In this document: one piece after another, positions 1-19,568 of the stretch
Position numbering within the stretch: the first letter of the stretch is position 1
Layout of the letters: the number at the start of each line of letters is the position of its first letter
Assembly: GCF_003334815.1 (NCBI RefSeq)
Contig: NZ_QOWO01000002.1
Length of the DNA: 64,000 nucleotides
Origin: Escherichia coli
Lineage (GTDB): Bacteria; Pseudomonadota; Gammaproteobacteria; Enterobacterales; Enterobacteriaceae
Direction: 5' to 3' (one strand)
Program-made: the position numbers and the translations under genes
Notes under the pieces: generated by a model
The model's database searches: none
Seen by the model: only the letters and a program-made list of their open reading frames with translations
What the model was told of the DNA's origin: nothing

Positions 1-168
1 TGTTTTGCCTTTACCGCCTTTGCCTGTTTGACGGGGATCTTCCCGAAAATGGAAGCCTTCACTGCAGAGTGGACCTTCCAGTTGGCGCTGAATGTTGCAA
101 CGCCGTTTGTGCTGGTAGGATTAGGACTGATATTCCCGCTGCTGGCGCGTAAAGCGAATAGTAAATAA
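1..168 (+). CDS. ycaM: 3' end of putative transporter gene (C-terminal fragment; start outside window)
   Basis: Frame 1 is open from the window edge to TAA at 166-168 (…LIFPLLARKANSK*), hydrophobic C-terminus; assignment by synteny with ycaN/ycaK. Confidence 0.55.
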   Translation, partial: CFAFTAFACLTGIFPKMEAFTAEWTFQLALNVATPFVLVGLGLIFPLLARKANSK

Positions 169-1077
169 TTATTGTGGTCGGTGACGCTGACTCTGGCAGA
201 TCTGACCCGTTTTTACATAATCGAGAAATGCGCGCAAGCCGCAGGACATATACTGGCGGTTTGGATAATAGATCTGGAAGCCTGGACGCTCTGTGCTCCA
301 GTCTTCCAGTACACATTCTAAACGACCAGTATCAAGGTACTCCTTGATCTGTTCATAGAGCAGATACCCGATACCAGCACCCATCAAAACGGCCTCCAGT
401 TCAGCATCAACATCATCCAGAATGATATTTCCTGCGACAGCAATTTCCAGCTCCTTTGCAAATTGCCAGTGGAAAGGTTTGCCGCTGGGATAACGAAAAA
501 CAACACATTGATGATTAAGCAGATCATGAGGATGGCGGGGTTTGCCATATCTTGCAAAGTACTCTGGCGTTGCTGCTACACATAATTTCACTGGCGGGCC
601 GATCGCCACGCTGATCATATCTTTTTCGACGATGCAACTAAGTCGAACGCCAGCGTCAAAGCCCTGTTGGACGATATCGACAAGAGAGTCGTCAGTTGTG
701 AGCTCGACTTTAATATCAGGATATTCACGTGTGAAACCAACCAGTAAAGACATTAAAAATATACGTGCAGCTACCCGGGCGGCATTGATTTTGAGCGTTC
801 CTGTCGGTGTCAGACGAAAATCATTCATCTCATCTAACATGATCTGAATTTCGTCGAAAGCTGGGCGCAATCGTTCATAGAGATTAGAACCCGCTTCCGT
901 TAACGATACGCTTCGGGTTGTCCGATTGAATAAGCGAATTTTAAGACGTTGTTCCAGTGTTTTAATACTATGGCTAATGGCGGACGAGGATAAGCCTAAC
1001 TCATCGCCCGCTGCACGAAAGCTTTGATTACGGGCCACGGCAAAGAAAGTGGCAAAGTCAGACATATTCATCCGCAT
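169..1077 (-). CDS. ycaN: LysR-family transcriptional regulator
   Basis: 302-aa ORF with N-terminal LysR-type HTH (FRAAGDELGLSSSAISHSIKTLEQRL); divergent from ycaK; its stop codon abuts the ycaM stop (taatta at 166-171). Confidence 0.9.
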   Translation of the reverse strand: MRMNMSDFATFFAVARNQSFRAAGDELGLSSSAISHSIKTLEQRLKIRLFNRTTRSVSLTEAGSNLYERLRPAFDEIQIMLDEMNDFRLTPTGTLKINAARVAARIFLMSLLVGFTREYPDIKVELTTDDSLVDIVQQGFDAGVRLSCIVEKDMISVAIGPPVKLCVAATPEYFARYGKPRHPHDLLNHQCVVFRYPSGKPFHWQFAKELEIAVAGNIILDDVDAELEAVLMGAGIGYLLYEQIKEYLDTGRLECVLEDWSTERPGFQIYYPNRQYMSCGLRAFLDYVKTGQICQSQRHRPQ

Positions 1078-1100
1078 TAGTGAAAATCCTTCATTAACTC

Positions 1101-1126
1101 ATCCTGAATCATCACGTTTACAGGAT
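1101..1126. promoter_or_regulatory. inverted repeat ATCCTG-N14-CAGGAT in the ycaN/ycaK divergent intergenic region (candidate LysR-type operator)
   Basis: Perfect 6-bp inverted repeat read directly at 1101-1106 and 1121-1126, between divergent start codons of a LysR regulator and its neighbour. Confidence 0.4.
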
Positions 1127-1176
1127 TATGCCGCCTGCGTAAAGTGCGCTCCAGAACTTAACGTGGAGGTAAAATT

Positions 1177-1767
1177 ATGCAGTCTGAACGTATTTATTTG
1201 GTATGGGCCCATCCTCGTCATGATTCATTGACCGCACATATTGCTGATGCGATCCATCAGCGGGCAATGGAGCGGAAAATACAGGTGACGGAACTCGATT
1301 TATATCGGCGTAATTTCAACCCAGTGATGACGCCGGAAGATGAACCAGACTGGAAGAATATGGATAAACGTTATTCTCCAGAGGTTCATCAGCTTTATTC
1401 AGAGCTGCTTGAACATGACACGTTAGTGGTGGTTTTTCCTCTCTGGTGGTACAGCTTCCCGGCAATGCTAAAAGGATATATTGACAGAGTATGGAATAAT
1501 GGGCTGGCTTATGGAGATGGGCACAAATTACCATTCAATAAAGTTCGTTGGGTGGCGCTGGTTGGAGGAGACAAAGAATCATTTGTCCAGATGGGCTGGG
1601 AAAAAAATATAAGCGATTATTTAAAAAATATGTGCAGTTATCTTGGTATTGAAGATGCCGATGTCACTTTCTTGTGTAATACAGTGGTATTCGATGGGGA
1701 AGAACTTCACGCGAGCTATTATCAGTCGTTATTATCTCAGGTACGGGATATGGTAGATGCACTATAA
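1177..1767 (+). CDS. ycaK: flavodoxin-like NAD(P)H dehydrogenase (quinone) family protein
   Basis: 196-aa ORF, GGAGG Shine-Dalgarno about 9 nt upstream of ATG; KefF/MdaB-like fold recognised from sequence. Confidence 0.88.
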   Translation: MQSERIYLVWAHPRHDSLTAHIADAIHQRAMERKIQVTELDLYRRNFNPVMTPEDEPDWKNMDKRYSPEVHQLYSELLEHDTLVVVFPLWWYSFPAMLKGYIDRVWNNGLAYGDGHKLPFNKVRWVALVGGDKESFVQMGWEKNISDYLKNMCSYLGIEDADVTFLCNTVVFDGEELHASYYQSLLSQVRDMVDAL

Positions 1768-1805
1768 GATGTGTTAAAAACGCTGTAGCAGAATGAAGCG
1801 CGGAA

Positions 1806-1838
1806 TAAAAAAGCGGCAACTCAATAAAGTTGCCGCTT
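1806..1838 (-). terminator. rho-independent terminator downstream of pflA (hairpin also faces ycaK)
   Basis: Stem AAGCGGCAAC/GTTGCCGCTT (1811-1820 / 1829-1838) followed on the minus strand by a T-run. Confidence 0.75.
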
Positions 1839-1848
1839 TACGGGGAAA

Positions 1849-2589
1849 TTAGAACATTACCTTATGACCGTACTGCTCAAGAATGCCTTTCACGCGTTCC
1901 ATGGTCTCTTTCTTCGGTGGTTTAACACCGTCGAGTTTGTACTCTTCACCCATTGCCACCCATTTGTGTTTGCCCAGCTCGTGGTAGGGGAGAAGCTCGA
2001 TTTTCTCAACGTTGCCCATATCACGGGTAAATTCACCGAGGCGATGCGCTGAATCGTCATCGTCAGACCAGCCTGGGACAACAACGTAGCGGATCCACAC
2101 CTTCACATTTTTGTTCGCCAGATATTTAGCGAACTCCAGCGTGCGGTGGTTGGAAACTCCAACCAGATTTTGGTGGATCTCGTCGTTCATCTGTTTGAGA
2201 TCGAGCATTACCAGGTCGGTTACTTCCAGCAGTTCATCAATCACCGGATCGTAACGACGAACAAAACCGTTGGTGTCCAGACAGGTATGAATGCCTTCTT
2301 TTTTGCAGGCGCGGAACCAGTCACGAACAAACTCAGCTTGCAGGATTGCTTCACCGCCGGATGCGGTAACGCCGCCGCCGGAAGCGTTCATAAAGTGGCG
2401 ATAGGTCACCACTTCCTTCATCAAATCTTCAACGGTAACTTCTTTACCGCCATGCGTGTCCCAGGTGTCGCGGTTATGACAATACAGGCAGCGCATCAGG
2501 CAGCCCTGGAAAAAGGTGATAAAGCGAATACCTGGGCCGTCTACGGTTCCACAGGATTCAAAGGAGTGAATGCGACCAATAACTGACAT
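1849..2589 (-). CDS. pflA: pyruvate formate-lyase activating enzyme (radical SAM)
   Basis: ORF-track 255 aa trimmed to internal ATG giving 246-aa PflA ([20 protein letters not shown]…); CxxxCxxC motif CLMRCLYC. Confidence 0.95.
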
Positions 2590-2710
2590 TGCGGTGTTTC
2601 TCCAGATGTGGCCCATCTGAGGCCGTGTTGGTGCGCAGCTCGAAGGCTACGTCGAGTCTGTTTTGGCAGTCACCTTAAAGTATAGATAGCTGACAAAAAA
2701 GGCTCTCGCG

Positions 2711-2738
2711 CTAAAAAAGGCCCCACTTTCGTGGAGCC
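2711..2738 (-). terminator. rho-independent terminator downstream of pflB
   Basis: Hairpin GGCCCCAC-TTTC-GTGGAGCC (2719-2738) followed on the minus strand by TTTTTT (plus-strand A-run 2713-2718). Confidence 0.7.
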
Positions 2739-2780
2739 TTTATTGTACGCTTTTTACTGTACGATTTCAGTCAAATCTAA

Positions 2781-5063
<2,283 letters not shown>

Positions 5064-16626: not shown

Positions 16627-16648
16627 CTTCGGGATTTTTATTCCGAAG
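16627..16648 (+). terminator. hairpin downstream of rpsA (putative terminator)
   Basis: CTTCGG-N10-CCGAAG with T-rich loop and short T-run. Confidence 0.45.
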
Positions 16649-16691: not shown

Positions 16692-16775
16692 CAAGCACTA
16701 AGGGCGGCTACGGCCGCCCTTAATCAATGCAGCAACAGCAGCCGCTTAATTTGCCTTTAAGGAACCGGAGGAATC

Positions 16776-17060: not shown

Positions 17061-17085
17061 GTTTTTTACTCAAACTTGAACGAGA

Positions 17086-17110
17086 GAAAAGCACCTGTCG
17101 GGTGCTTTTT
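17086..17110 (+). terminator. rho-independent terminator after ihfB
   Basis: AGCACC-TGTCG-GGTGCT followed by TTTTTT. Confidence 0.85.
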
Positions 17111-17267
17111 TCATTTCTCTAATCTGGAACTGGAAGCTGCCTCGCAGAGTTTTGAACAGTTTTCACCCTTTCGTTAAATTCTTCTGAATATGCCTCGGGG
17201 AACGCAAAATTCCCACCAGACAACCGCTCAACAAAGTTGCACACTTTCCATAAACAGGGAGGGGTGC

Positions 17268-19532
17268 ATGAAAATAACGACAGTCGGTGTATGCATAATT
17301 AGCGGAATTTTTCCGTTGCTGATTTTGCCCCAATTGCCTGGGACATTAACCCTTGCGTTTCTGACTCTCTTCGCCTGCGTACTGGCATTTATCCCTGTTA
17401 AAACCGTCCGTTATATCGCGCTGACGTTGCTGTTTTTCGTTTGGGGCATATTATCAGCAAAGCAAATTTTGTGGGCAGGAGAAACCTTAACTGGCGCGAC
17501 GCAGGATGCAATTGTTGAGATCACTGCAACTGACGGCATGACCACTCATTACGGTCAAATTACTCATCTACAAGGTCGACGTATATTCCCTGCGTCAGGT
17601 CTCGTGATGTATGGCGAATATCTTCCGCAAGCGGTTTGTGCTGGACAACAATGGTCAATGAAACTCAAAGTTCGTGCAGTTCATGGCCAACTTAATGATG
17701 GCGGCTTTGATAGCCAGCGTTATGCCATTGCCCAGCATCAGCCGCTCACCGGCCGTTTTCTGCAGGCAAGTGTCATTGAACCGAATTGTAGCCTGCGTGC
17801 ACAGTATCTGGCGTCACTACAAACAACGCTGCAACCCTATCCGTGGAATGCGGTTATTCTTGGTTTAGGTATGGGGGAACGGTTATCCGTCCCCAAAGAA
17901 ATCAAAAATATCATGCGCGATACTGGAACGGCGCATTTAATGGCGATATCGGGATTGCACATCGCTTTTGCGGCGTTGCTGGCTGCCGGACTCATTCGCA
18001 GTGGACAAATTTTTCTGCCTGGGCGCTGGATCCACTGGCAAATACCATTAATTGGCGGAATCTGCTGTGCTGCTTTTTATGCCTGGTTGACGGGAATGCA
18101 ACCTCCTGCATTGCGTACCATGGTGGCGCTTGCTACGTGGGGAATGCTTAAGTTAAGTGGGCGACAGTGGAGTGGCTGGGATGTATGGATATGTTGTCTG
18201 GCGGCAATTTTGCTGATGGATCCTGTTGCCATTCTCTCGCAAAGTTTATGGCTCTCTGCCGCTGCGGTCGCGGCATTGATATTTTGGTATCAGTGGTTTC
18301 CCTGTCCTGAGTGGCAACTGCCGCCGGTATTGCGTGCAGTTGTTTCCCTCATCCATCTGCAACTGGGAATCACACTTCTGCTTATGCCCGTGCAAATCGT
18401 CATATTTCATGGCATTAGTCTGACCTCGTTTATTGCAAATCTATTAGCAATTCCCTTGGTGACATTTATCACGGTTCCGTTGATCCTCGCCGCGATGGTT
18501 GTGCATTTAAGCGGGCCGTTAATCCTGGAGCAAGGGTTATGGTTTCTTGCCGACCGGTCTTTGGCTTTACTTTTCTGGGGGTTAAAGAGTTTGCCGGAAG
18601 GGTGGATCAACATTGCTGAATGTTGGCAATGGCTATCATTTTCCCCATGGTTCTTACTGGTGGTATGGCGATTAAACGCCTGGCGAACGTTGCCAGCAAT
18701 GTGTGTGGCTGGAGGCTTGCTGATGTGCTGGCCGCTGTGGCAAAAACCTCGACCTGACGAGTGGCAGCTGTACATGCTTGATGTCGGGCAAGGGCTGGCA
18801 ATGGTGATAGCCAGAAACGGCAAAGCGATTCTCTATGACACAGGACTGGCCTGGCCTGAAGGGGATAGTGGGCAACGACTGATTATCCCCTGGCTCCACT
18901 GGCATAATCTTGAACCGGAAGGCGTTATTCTGAGCCATGAACATCTGGATCACCGGGGAGGGCTGGATTCAATATTGCATATATGGCCGATGTTATGGAT
19001 CAGAAGTCCGTTAAACTGGGAACATCATCAGCCCTGTGTGCGTGGCGAAGCGTGGCAATGGCAAGGATTGCGTTTCAGCGCGCACTGGCCTTTACAAGGT
19101 AGCAACGATAAAGGAAATAACCATTCCTGTGTGGTTAAGGTTGATGACGGGACGAATAGCATTCTTCTAACCGGTGATATTGAAGCCCCAGCTGAACAAA
19201 AGATGCTAAGCCGTTACTGGCAGCAAGTGCAGGCAACATTGCTTCAGGTACCTCACCATGGCAGTAATACCTCATCATCGTTGCCATTAATTCAGCGAGT
19301 GAATGGAAAAGTGGCACTCGCATCGGCATCGCGCTATAACGCATGGCGACTGCCCTCTAACAAAGTTAAGCATCGCTATCAACTGCAAGGATATCAATGG
19401 ATTGATACTCCACATCAAGGTCAAACAACGGTCAATTTTTCAGCGCAAGGCTGGCGGATTAGCAGCCTCAGGGAGCAAATTTTACCTCGTTGGTATCATC
19501 AGTGGTTTGGCGTGCCAGTGGATAACGGGTAG
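17268..19532 (+). CDS. ycaI: ComEC/Rec2-family inner-membrane protein with metallo-beta-lactamase domain
   Basis: ORF-track 780 aa trimmed to ATG giving 754 aa (MKITTVGVCIISGIFPLLILPQLPG…); polytopic N-terminus, C-terminal HxHxDH-type motif (SHEHLDHRGG). Confidence 0.85.
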   Translation: MKITTVGVCIISGIFPLLILPQLPGTLTLAFLTLFACVLAFIPVKTVRYIALTLLFFVWGILSAKQILWAGETLTGATQDAIVEITATDGMTTHYGQITHLQGRRIFPASGLVMYGEYLPQAVCAGQQWSMKLKVRAVHGQLNDGGFDSQRYAIAQHQPLTGRFLQASVIEPNCSLRAQYLASLQTTLQPYPWNAVILGLGMGERLSVPKEIKNIMRDTGTAHLMAISGLHIAFAALLAAGLIRSGQIFLPGRWIHWQIPLIGGICCAAFYAWLTGMQPPALRTMVALATWGMLKLSGRQWSGWDVWICCLAAILLMDPVAILSQSLWLSAAAVAALIFWYQWFPCPEWQLPPVLRAVVSLIHLQLGITLLLMPVQIVIFHGISLTSFIANLLAIPLVTFITVPLILAAMVVHLSGPLILEQGLWFLADRSLALLFWGLKSLPEGWINIAECWQWLSFSPWFLLVVWRLNAWRTLPAMCVAGGLLMCWPLWQKPRPDEWQLYMLDVGQGLAMVIARNGKAILYDTGLAWPEGDSGQRLIIPWLHWHNLEPEGVILSHEHLDHRGGLDSILHIWPMLWIRSPLNWEHHQPCVRGEAWQWQGLRFSAHWPLQGSNDKGNNHSCVVKVDDGTNSILLTGDIEAPAEQKMLSRYWQQVQATLLQVPHHGSNTSSSLPLIQRVNGKVALASASRYNAWRLPSNKVKHRYQLQGYQWIDTPHQGQTTVNFSAQGWRISSLREQILPRWYHQWFGVPVDNG

Positions 19533-19568
19533 AATATGCGGCTATTTCAACAAATGCTGGTTTTTTGA

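Follow-up and report, generated by a model that had tools for sequence, protein, structure and literature searches.

E. coli has a full and selectively maintained set of competence-gene homologues, and to our knowledge natural transformation of the species without assistance has never been demonstrated. The closest described relatives of the product of one of these homologues, ycaI, are the ComEC/Rec2 proteins (TIGR00361), typified by Rec2 of H. influenzae, ComEC of B. subtilis and the structures 9vc9, 9vcb, 9vcf and 30bt, with a three-part architecture of OB fold, Competence membrane core and metallo-beta-lactamase (MBL) fold that is common to YcaI. The N-terminal DUF4131 part has been assigned an OB fold (PMC5031224), and in relatives of YcaI the MBL domain of ComEC has nuclease activity, with an interplay between this domain and the OB fold (PMC8579336, PMC12455585). 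The family reportedly also has msbA as a genomic partner, the same as ycaI (Clifton et al. 1994, cited in PMC5031224).

The competence homologues of E. coli are members of the Sxy/CRP-S regulon (PMC1635313, PMC3330819, PMC6728893), and it has been stated in general terms that expression of sxy induces all of them (PMC3330819). CRP-S sites are found in the rec2 promoters of Pasteurellaceae and rec2 is also among the Enterobacteriaceae promoters that have been analysed, with the position of CRP-S sites described, again in general terms, as conserved among Enterobacteriaceae (PMC1635313). For E. coli an asymmetric CRP-S motif, TGCGA-N6-TTCCA, has been given (PMC6728893).

YcaI and the ComEC/Rec2 family

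The window, which is the whole 64 kb stretch of E. coli DNA that was analysed, contains ycaI as a frame of 754 aa plus stop, the product being YcaI, a ComEC family protein (Table 1). Mechanical searching for open reading frames gives a longer frame of 780 aa at 17190-19532, which was rejected. The ATG at 17268 is the start annotated by RefSeq in 100%-identical genomes and is also the conserved start, with the Shine-Dalgarno sequence CAGGGAGG and an ATG or GTG at 17268 kept across 46 aligned sequences. It is preferred because the upstream ATG (17190) is lineage-specific, with GAACGTGCC at that place in other E. coli, and is without a conserved Shine-Dalgarno sequence.

Table 1. Positions in the window of ycaI, its domains and the adjoining regulatory elements
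Feature	Position	Strand	Details	Evidence
ihfB intrinsic terminator	17084..17112	+	A-tract, GCACC...GGTGC stem, T-tract	terminator scan, 13 pairs
Candidate CRP-S site (cAMP-CRP + Sxy)	17128..17149	-	core TGCGAGGCAGCTTCCA at 17131-17146	motif match, conservation
Sigma70-like promoter candidate	17217..17245	+	-35 CAGACA 17217-17222, 17-nt spacer, -10 CACACT 17240-17245	conservation
ycaI Shine-Dalgarno	17255..17264	+	CAGGGAGGGG	majority fraction 0.92, 46 sequences, fixed distance to ATG
ycaI CDS	17268..19532	+		family models, Pfam, RefSeq annotation, orthologue lengths, dN/dS
DUF4131 / OB-fold domain (PF13567)	17346..17738	+	residues 27-157	Pfam E 5.6e-5, weak match
Competence domain (PF03772), transmembrane channel part	17868..18668	+	residues 201-467	Pfam E 4.1e-53
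MBL-fold domain, Lactamase_B (PF00753)	18780..19325	+	residues 505-686	Pfam E 3.6e-23
HxHxDH motif HEHLDH	18936-18953	+	residues 557-562	direct reading; intact
Promoter-like site for msbA	19507..19535	+	TTGGCG-17-TAGAAT	promoter scan, 9/12 matches

ComEC/Rec2 is the inner-membrane protein of the machinery for natural competence, and YcaI is its orthologue in E. coli. YcaI matches the curated equivalog model over its full length and above the trusted cut-off, with 1308.8 bits against NF008580 (NCBIfam equivalog, cut-off 969) and 1128.6 bits against TIGR00361 (cut-off 190.05), and the Competence region gives a further 211 bits against TIGR00360. The original prediction, made from the letters alone, was of a 754-aa polytopic membrane protein with ComEC architecture that ends in an MBL-type SHEHLDHRGG motif, and all of this is borne out by the RefSeq start with its conserved Shine-Dalgarno sequence, by the family models, by the three Pfam domains and by the structural model described below.

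The AlphaFold model (pLDDT 81.7) has the layout helices, beta-barrel, helical bundle and MBL domain, with five beta-barrel strands (residues 79-171) after three N-terminal helices, so that the N-terminal domain, a weak match in Pfam, is predicted to have the OB fold that is expected of a ComEC protein. The membrane core is clearer, with Pfam, Kyte-Doolittle hydrophobic stretches within residues 1-70 and 220-425 and a helical bundle in the model at residues 176-491 all describing a polytopic Competence domain. In phmmer searches against solved ComEC/Rec2 structures residues 105-747 match 9vc9 (E 3e-78) and 9vcb (E 8e-75). A fold search of the PDB matched the MBL domain alone and did not return full-length ComEC (9vc9 and others), which presumably lie outside the structure set searched. 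The best structural match of this domain (residues ~499-733) is the ComEC beta-lactamase-like domain 9ic4 (Foldseek E 2e-13, TM 0.79); Pce and RNase J match less well.

The domain at the C-terminus is an MBL domain with a metal-binding motif, as in ComEC, the predicted SHEHLDHRGG being read directly as residues 556-565 (nt 18933-18962). Residues D505, H557, H559, D561, H562, D637, H663 and H664 do not vary among 36 orthologues and the full HxHxDH metal site is kept in all of the Enterobacterales genera examined, whereas the three closest solved gamma-proteobacterial Rec2/ComEC chains have lost two of the ligands (HGANAH or HSANAH) and the Moorella-type ComEC proteins have HPDADH. Compared with MBL-fold nucleases and phosphodiesterases in general (9ic4, Pce/CbpE, RNase J) the YcaI domain has the same fold and conserved metal-ligand motifs, but it is without beta-CASP (PMC5031224) and is tethered to a membrane channel, and its nuclease activity is putative.

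The region between ihfB and ycaI

The upstream gene, ihfB, ends in a hairpin with a 13-bp stem followed by a T-rich tail. The fold has a dG of -17.8 kcal/mol, which is well below that of shuffled sequences (z = -3.67), and the terminator is present in all aligned genera, with a majority fraction of 0.81-0.94 in its arms (46 sequences). For Salmonella an absence of read-through from ihfB is reported (PMC8942017). It had been proposed that a terminator at 17086-17110 separates the two genes and that ycaI has a promoter of its own in 17111-17267; the first lies inside this hairpin, and the second is supported by conserved promoter-type candidates in that region, a CRP-S-like site and a -35/-10-like pair.

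The core of the candidate CRP-S site, in a 207-bp intergenic region, matches the E. coli motif exactly, and its centre is 129.5 bp upstream of the ycaI ATG. The exact pattern occurs twice in the 64 kb against 0.14 expected, and the chance expectation of a match within the ihfB-ycaI intergenic region is about 0.0005. The second occurrence, at 59972-59987, was taken as chance because it is covered by a 369-aa ORF of the opposite strand. The half-sites of the candidate are conserved across genera (0.81 and 0.90) with a variable spacer between them (0.55), and they are without variation within Escherichia; members of the Citrobacter freundii group have TGGGA or TGAGA for TGCGA, with loss of the diagnostic C. 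A site with the TGCGA-type half-site and the 22-bp CRP geometry of the regulon lies upstream of ycaI. The core is identical to the E. coli motif and upstream of a competence-gene homologue, as at the CRP-S promoters of the gamma-proteobacterial competence regulon, and its position is conserved among Enterobacteriaceae, in line with the general description of CRP-S sites.

Between this site and the start codon the blocks CAGACA and CACACT are conserved (0.82 and 0.94), with a spacer that is not (0.44; 46-sequence alignment). This pair, with 7/12 consensus matches, is below the reach of a consensus promoter scan, and scanning with the sigma70 consensus gave no promoter in 17111-17267 of E. coli or in the orthologous region of Citrobacter and a single one, on the opposite strand, in the Kosakonia region. 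The conserved pair may act as the ycaI promoter, in which case transcription would start near 17252. The CRP-S site would then be centred near -113.5, which is past the usual class I positions and past the class I-like distances described for CRP-S promoters; on a reading of the alignment alternative weak -10 candidates would place it at about -60 to -72. Inspection of the intergenic region by eye against the consensus gave no convincing canonical CRP site, sigma54 promoter or sigmaE promoter, and a search of this region and of ycaI for RNA elements (Rfam at E<=1) gave chance-level matches only, far below the gathering scores.

Proposed DNA import and other possible roles for YcaI

Experimental data on ycaI are few, in agreement with the earlier description of its role as poorly defined. 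Inactivation of ycaI leaves spontaneous plasmid transformation unaffected (PMC6135910), a route that differs from natural uptake, and the knock-out is without a growth phenotype (PMC3890546). A ycaI nonsense mutant of DH5alpha has a lowered efficiency of CaCl2 and ultrasound transformation (PMC12844161), although the effects are modest and come from one study. DNA uptake by E. coli is barely detectable even under over-expression of sxy and the species is not transformable in standard assays (PMC3330819). That paper does not contain the terms 'ycaI', 'rec2' or 'comEC', and in the literature searched neither an experiment on ycaI itself in Sxy-induced DNA uptake nor, in contrast to the ComEC/Rec2 family, a DNA-uptake or transformation phenotype for ycaI itself was found.

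We consider it probable that ycaI encodes a ComEC/Rec2 DNA-import protein, made up of a periplasmic OB/MBL nuclease and a channel, that is switched on through CRP-S and Sxy. The family, domains, selection and motifs are observed, and by analogy with its relatives YcaI itself is likely to have DNA transport and nuclease activity. From homology the N-terminal OB-fold and C-terminal MBL-fold domains would be oriented to the periplasm, where the nuclease domain would break down one strand of incoming double-stranded DNA, with the helical bundle forming the channel by which the other strand reaches the cytoplasm. The gene would be silent under ordinary culture, and binding of cAMP-CRP and Sxy (TfoX) at 17131-17146 would turn it on in common with the remaining competence homologues, the weak conserved sigma70-type element just upstream of the start codon being its candidate promoter. 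The dependence of this promoter on Sxy and CRP is presumed from the site.

A different role is possible for the same protein, in that the enteric YcaI might be chiefly a periplasm-facing membrane nuclease and permease that serves the use of extracellular DNA as food, or envelope physiology, as against transformation, and perhaps partly independent of the pilus. The HEHLDH motif, invariant in Enterobacterales and degenerate in the nearest solved gamma-proteobacterial proteins, is consistent with this, as is the DH5alpha mutant, on which the reservations above apply. Finkel and Kolter in 2001 and Palchevskiy and Finkel in 2006 reportedly linked E. coli com homologues with the use of DNA as a nutrient, but the genes with a demonstrated requirement for growth on DNA are not known to include ycaI. 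The CRP-S site, moreover, links ycaI to the genes of the pilus and secretin. We regard this alternative as unlikely, and it is not truly exclusive of DNA import under CRP-S and Sxy, as one machine could serve both ends. A related suggestion is that selection on the ComEC orthologue of Enterobacterales acts mainly on nuclease and import functions by which DNA is scavenged as a nutrient, transformation being secondary. It is prompted by the complete HxHxDH in every genus examined, by the conserved CRP-S site, which would answer to starvation and cAMP, and by the interlock of the 3' end of ycaI with the presumed promoter of msbA, the gene of the essential lipid-A flippase, through which a cryptic competence gene would be tied to the making of the envelope; it is a tentative idea, and a doubtful one.

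Maintenance of ycaI and its overlap with the presumed msbA promoter

The earlier statement that E. coli keeps ycaI holds for all complete genomes, the gene being found in 5426 of 5426, with at least 80% of the locus in 5424. Its reading frame is intact in 36 Enterobacterales genera. The orthologues of 35 other taxa are full-length, at 749-757 aa, and for dS values of up to 0.8 the dN/dS ratio is about 0.08-0.10. The gene is intact and under purifying selection, and on this evidence it is not decaying. Disrupted alleles are occasional: ycaI of strain OkiPb01684 carries an IS1 insertion, and in strain 90-3040 the match is truncated.

The presumed promoter of msbA sits in the last codons of ycaI, whose stop codon TAG (19530-19532) forms part of the -10. 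This arrangement is found in 36/36 orthologous loci, and the site is predicted to drive msbA. Synonymous-site conservation peaks in the last ~12 codons of ycaI (0.93, against a gene mean of 0.57). Annotations usually place ycaI at the head of a ycaI-msbA-lpxK-ycaQ operon (PMC10328246, PMC4421995).

It could be argued that ycaI, as head of this operon and carrier of the presumed msbA promoter, is kept mainly by an interlock with essential genes that constrains its DNA, with a protein that does little or nothing in E. coli, which would fit the operon annotation, the overlap in all 36 loci, the peak of synonymous conservation at the 3' end and the knock-outs reported to lack a phenotype. However, the constrained part is only about the last 40 nt, whereas purifying selection acts on the entire 754-aa protein, the frames are intact across genera, and the invariant catalytic residues are 190-250 codons upstream of the promoter. 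Insertions and partial deletions of ycaI are also viable, and an IS1-disrupted allele occurs naturally. The interlock is a very improbable reason for the maintenance of ycaI. That ycaI is a relic becoming a pseudogene after the loss of natural competence is scarcely credible, as non-transformability in standard assays and the two disrupted alleles are set against a selection analysis that contradicts decay, the near-universal presence of the locus, full-length orthologues throughout Enterobacterales and the conservation of the Shine-Dalgarno sequence, promoter-like blocks and CRP-S site.

Reading ycaI as a DNA-import gene under Sxy adds nothing categorically new. The gene is already annotated, its family and the Sxy/CRP-S competence setting are both known, and its regulation is largely known in outline through that regulon. 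What has been gained are handles, in the form of a precisely located candidate CRP-S site, a conserved promoter candidate, a predicted nuclease active site that is intact and the overlap of the presumed msbA promoter with the ycaI stop, the last being relevant for the design of ycaI deletions that spare an essential gene. The roles long debated for the competence homologues of E. coli are transformation, the use of DNA as food and repair, and within their pathway ycaI would be the inner-membrane step.

The ycaI gene and its product

The ycaI region (17061-19532) is 100% identical to complete E. coli chromosomes, in which the local gene order is cmk-rpsA-ihfB-ycaI-msbA-lpxK-ycaQ. The mechanical open reading frame at 17190-19532 has 780 aa, and the RefSeq start, the ATG at 17268, gives a protein of 754 aa. 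The latter is accepted as the start because the Shine-Dalgarno sequence CAGGGAGG lies at a constant distance 5' of it, an ATG or GTG is kept at this position across an alignment of 46 sequences that span many genera, and the ATG at 17190 is confined to the lineage of the window, other E. coli having GAACGTGCC there. The 780-aa product is rejected on these grounds, its ATG also lacking a conserved Shine-Dalgarno sequence; the lineage-specific polymorphism that opens its frame lies at 17186-17192, where the window has GAATATG and the rest of Escherichia GAACGTG, GAACGCG or GAATGTG.

The original prediction read YcaI as a polytopic homologue of the DNA-import channel ComEC, and a domain search, named beforehand as the test by which this could fail, finds both the Competence and the Lactamase_B domains, which supports that reading. 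Hydrophobicity analysis agrees that the protein is polytopic, and the SHEHLDHRGG motif that had been quoted is present in it. YcaI scores 1308.8 bits against the NCBIfam family NF008580 'ComEC family protein' (cut-off 969) and 1128.6 bits against TIGR00361 'ComEC/Rec2' (cut-off 190), and a PDB sequence search matches full-length ComEC/Rec2 structures over residues ~105-747 at E 3e-78 to 1e-74. [quoted passage not shown]

The metal site differs from that of solved relatives. The three closest solved ComEC/Rec2 chains (9vc9, 9vcb and 9vcf) have HGANAH or HSANAH where YcaI has HEHLDH (residues 557-562), two metal ligands thus being absent from them, and Moorella-type proteins have HPDADH. The canonical HEHLDH is kept in YcaI and in 35/35 Enterobacterales orthologues, and with its motif intact the E. 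coli MBL domain looks catalytically competent, a modest conclusion drawn from sequence.

Features of the ihfB-ycaI spacer (window positions, conservation as majority fraction) and of YcaI (residues of the 754-aa protein)
Feature	Position	Details
Island 1	17131-17146	TGGAA 0.81 and TCGCA 0.90, non-conserved 6-nt spacer 0.55
Alternative weak -10 candidate	17173-17179	GTTAAAT, between the CRP-S site and CAGACA-17-CACACT
Alternative weak -10 candidate	17196-17203	CG.A.A block; TATAAC in several Citrobacter
Island 2	17216-17222	CCAGACA 0.82
Island 3	17239-17245	GCACACT 0.94, exactly 17 nt past GACA
Island 4 (ycaI Shine-Dalgarno)		0.92
DUF4131	residues 27-157	Pfam E 5.6e-5
Competence	residues 201-467	Pfam E 4e-53
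Lactamase_B	residues 505-686	Pfam E 4e-23
SHEHLDHRGG	residues 556-565 (nt 18933-18962)	

The ihfB-ycaI spacer and a candidate CRP-S site

The terminator that had been placed between ihfB and ycaI is borne out, as a 13-bp stem at 17084-17112 that folds at -17.8 kcal/mol (z = -3.7) and is kept in every aligned genus; in Salmonella there is no read-through out of ihfB, according to a study citing transcriptome data (PMC8942017). Upstream of ihfB a further hairpin, AAGGGCGGCTACGGCCGCCCTT (16700-16724), is perfect, G+C-rich and without a T-tract, and sits between a terminator-like site of rpsA (16627-16648) and the ihfB start (16776); its only match in Rfam is at chance level.

A simple scan of 17111-17267 found no sigma70 promoter. 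Phylogenetic footprinting of the spacer in 46 sequences (background majority fraction about 0.45-0.56) reveals four islands of conservation, the DNA around them being poorly conserved. The first reads TGCGAGGCAGCTTCCA on the minus strand, an exact match to TGCGA-N6-TTCCA, the asymmetric E. coli motif of CRP-S sites, the Sxy-dependent cAMP-CRP sites of the competence regulon (Sinha et al. 2009, as given in PMC6728893). Across the 64-kb window this motif is matched 2 times where 0.14 matches would be expected, and ~0.0005 would be expected in the 207-bp spacer. The other match, TGCGAATCACTTTCCA at 59972-59987 (+), is probably due to chance as it falls inside a 369-aa minus-strand ORF (59439-60548).

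Within Escherichia the half-sites of the candidate are invariant and the neighbouring positions variable. Between genera its 6-nt spacer varies (GCTGCC, AGCCCC, TCCCCT, AGCTGC and TCCTTC are among the versions), the strong half-site of Cedecea and Atlantibacter is on the opposite side, and in the Citrobacter freundii group the diagnostic C is gone, leaving TGGGA or TGAGA. Judged from the alignment, the varying spacers and side-switched strong half-site are the behaviour of a protein-binding site, not of shared ancestry alone. In Enterobacteriaceae CRP-S sites occur upstream of competence-gene homologues, rec2 being among the transcription units analysed (PMC1635313), and expression of sxy in E. 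coli reportedly induces all competence homologues (PMC3330819); the candidate is expected to be in published site listings already.

It is plausible that CAGACA-17-CACACT is a weak sigma70 promoter with a start near 17252. The CRP-S centre (17138.5) would lie at about -113.5 from this inferred start, in helical phase with class I positions, yet unusually far. Downstream of the candidate CRP-S site and ahead of the -35-like element, two further blocks, GTTTTCAC (17158-17165) and GTTAAATTCTT (17173-17183), are invariant in Escherichia; the second resembles a -10 element (TAAATT), has A/T-rich equivalents in other genera and may be an alternative promoter. The polymorphism at 17186-17192 also produces a -10-like GAATAT ~50 bp downstream of the candidate CRP-S site.

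A promoter-like site for msbA at the end of ycaI

The best promoter-like site of the region in a promoter scan is TTGGCG (19507-19512)-17-TAGAAT (19530-19535), 34 nt upstream of the start of msbA, the essential lipid-A flippase gene, with the ycaI stop codon TAG forming the first half of the -10 hexamer. TTGGCG-17-TA(G/A)AAT is kept in 36/36 orthologous Enterobacterales loci, and synonymous-site conservation peaks in the last ten-codon windows of ycaI (the last ~12 codons; 0.93, the mean over the gene being 0.57), which together suggest that msbA-lpxK has its own promoter inside ycaI. Hardly any variation occurs in the msbA leader (19536-19568), and no obvious Shine-Dalgarno sequence is seen in it. 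Such a promoter would account for the fact that ycaI can take insertions although msbA is essential, and the predicted site should be spared in the design of ycaI deletions. Natural disruptions of ycaI are rare, with an IS1A insertion in strain OkiPb01684 and, in strain 90-3040, a copy that is truncated or split (genomes NZ_AP042519.1 and NZ_CP027459.1).

Selection on YcaI and its possible role

In ComEC proteins that have been characterised, the strand that is not translocated is degraded by the MBL domain, a metal-dependent nuclease, DNA is bound by the OB fold, and the other strand passes through a channel formed by the competence domain (PMC8579336, PMC12455585, PMC5031224). By homology YcaI would be an inner-membrane protein with periplasmic OB-fold and MBL domains, and the preceding steps in E. 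coli would be carried out by the PpdD pilus and HofQ secretin. Sxy-induced uptake in E. coli is hofQ-dependent, very inefficient and detectable only with lambda Red (PMC3330819). Direct evidence on ycaI is sparse. Its knock-out leaves spontaneous plasmid transformation unaffected, a process that takes a double-stranded DNA route (PMC6135910, PMC3306417), and ycaI deletions are silent in growth studies, which use the gene to house neutral markers (PMC3890546, PMC8151780). In one recent study a ycaI nonsense mutant of DH5alpha showed reduced transformation by CaCl2 and ultrasound (PMC12844161). A mainly nutritional or nuclease role, a variant of ComEC-type import under CRP-S/Sxy control, is compatible with everything observed.

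The ycaI locus is found in 5426/5426 complete E. coli genomes, in 5424 at a coverage of at least 80%; 4 matches to it are on records classed as plasmids. A scan with one genome per species gave 207 relatives, of which 36 were analysed, from Escherichia to Pectobacterium, Erwinia and Pantoea. The reading frame is intact in all 36 (749-757 aa), D505, H557, H559, D561, H562, D637, H663 and H664 are invariant, and comparison of the window with other Escherichia lineages gives a dN/dS (Nei-Gojobori) of 0.08-0.10 at dS up to 0.8, against 0.015-0.05 for msbA. By these measures YcaI is under clear purifying selection, yet evolves faster than its essential neighbour. That ycaI is retained only through its interlocking with msbA is contradicted by selection which extends protein-wide and by the invariant catalytic residues, and the same evidence contradicts a decaying relic.

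The identification of ycaI is correct and ordinary: the gene is well annotated, its family is well known, and its genomic and regulatory context is already known. The purpose of the competence homologues of E. coli is a real question, to which the ycaI locus adds only specific handles for testing.
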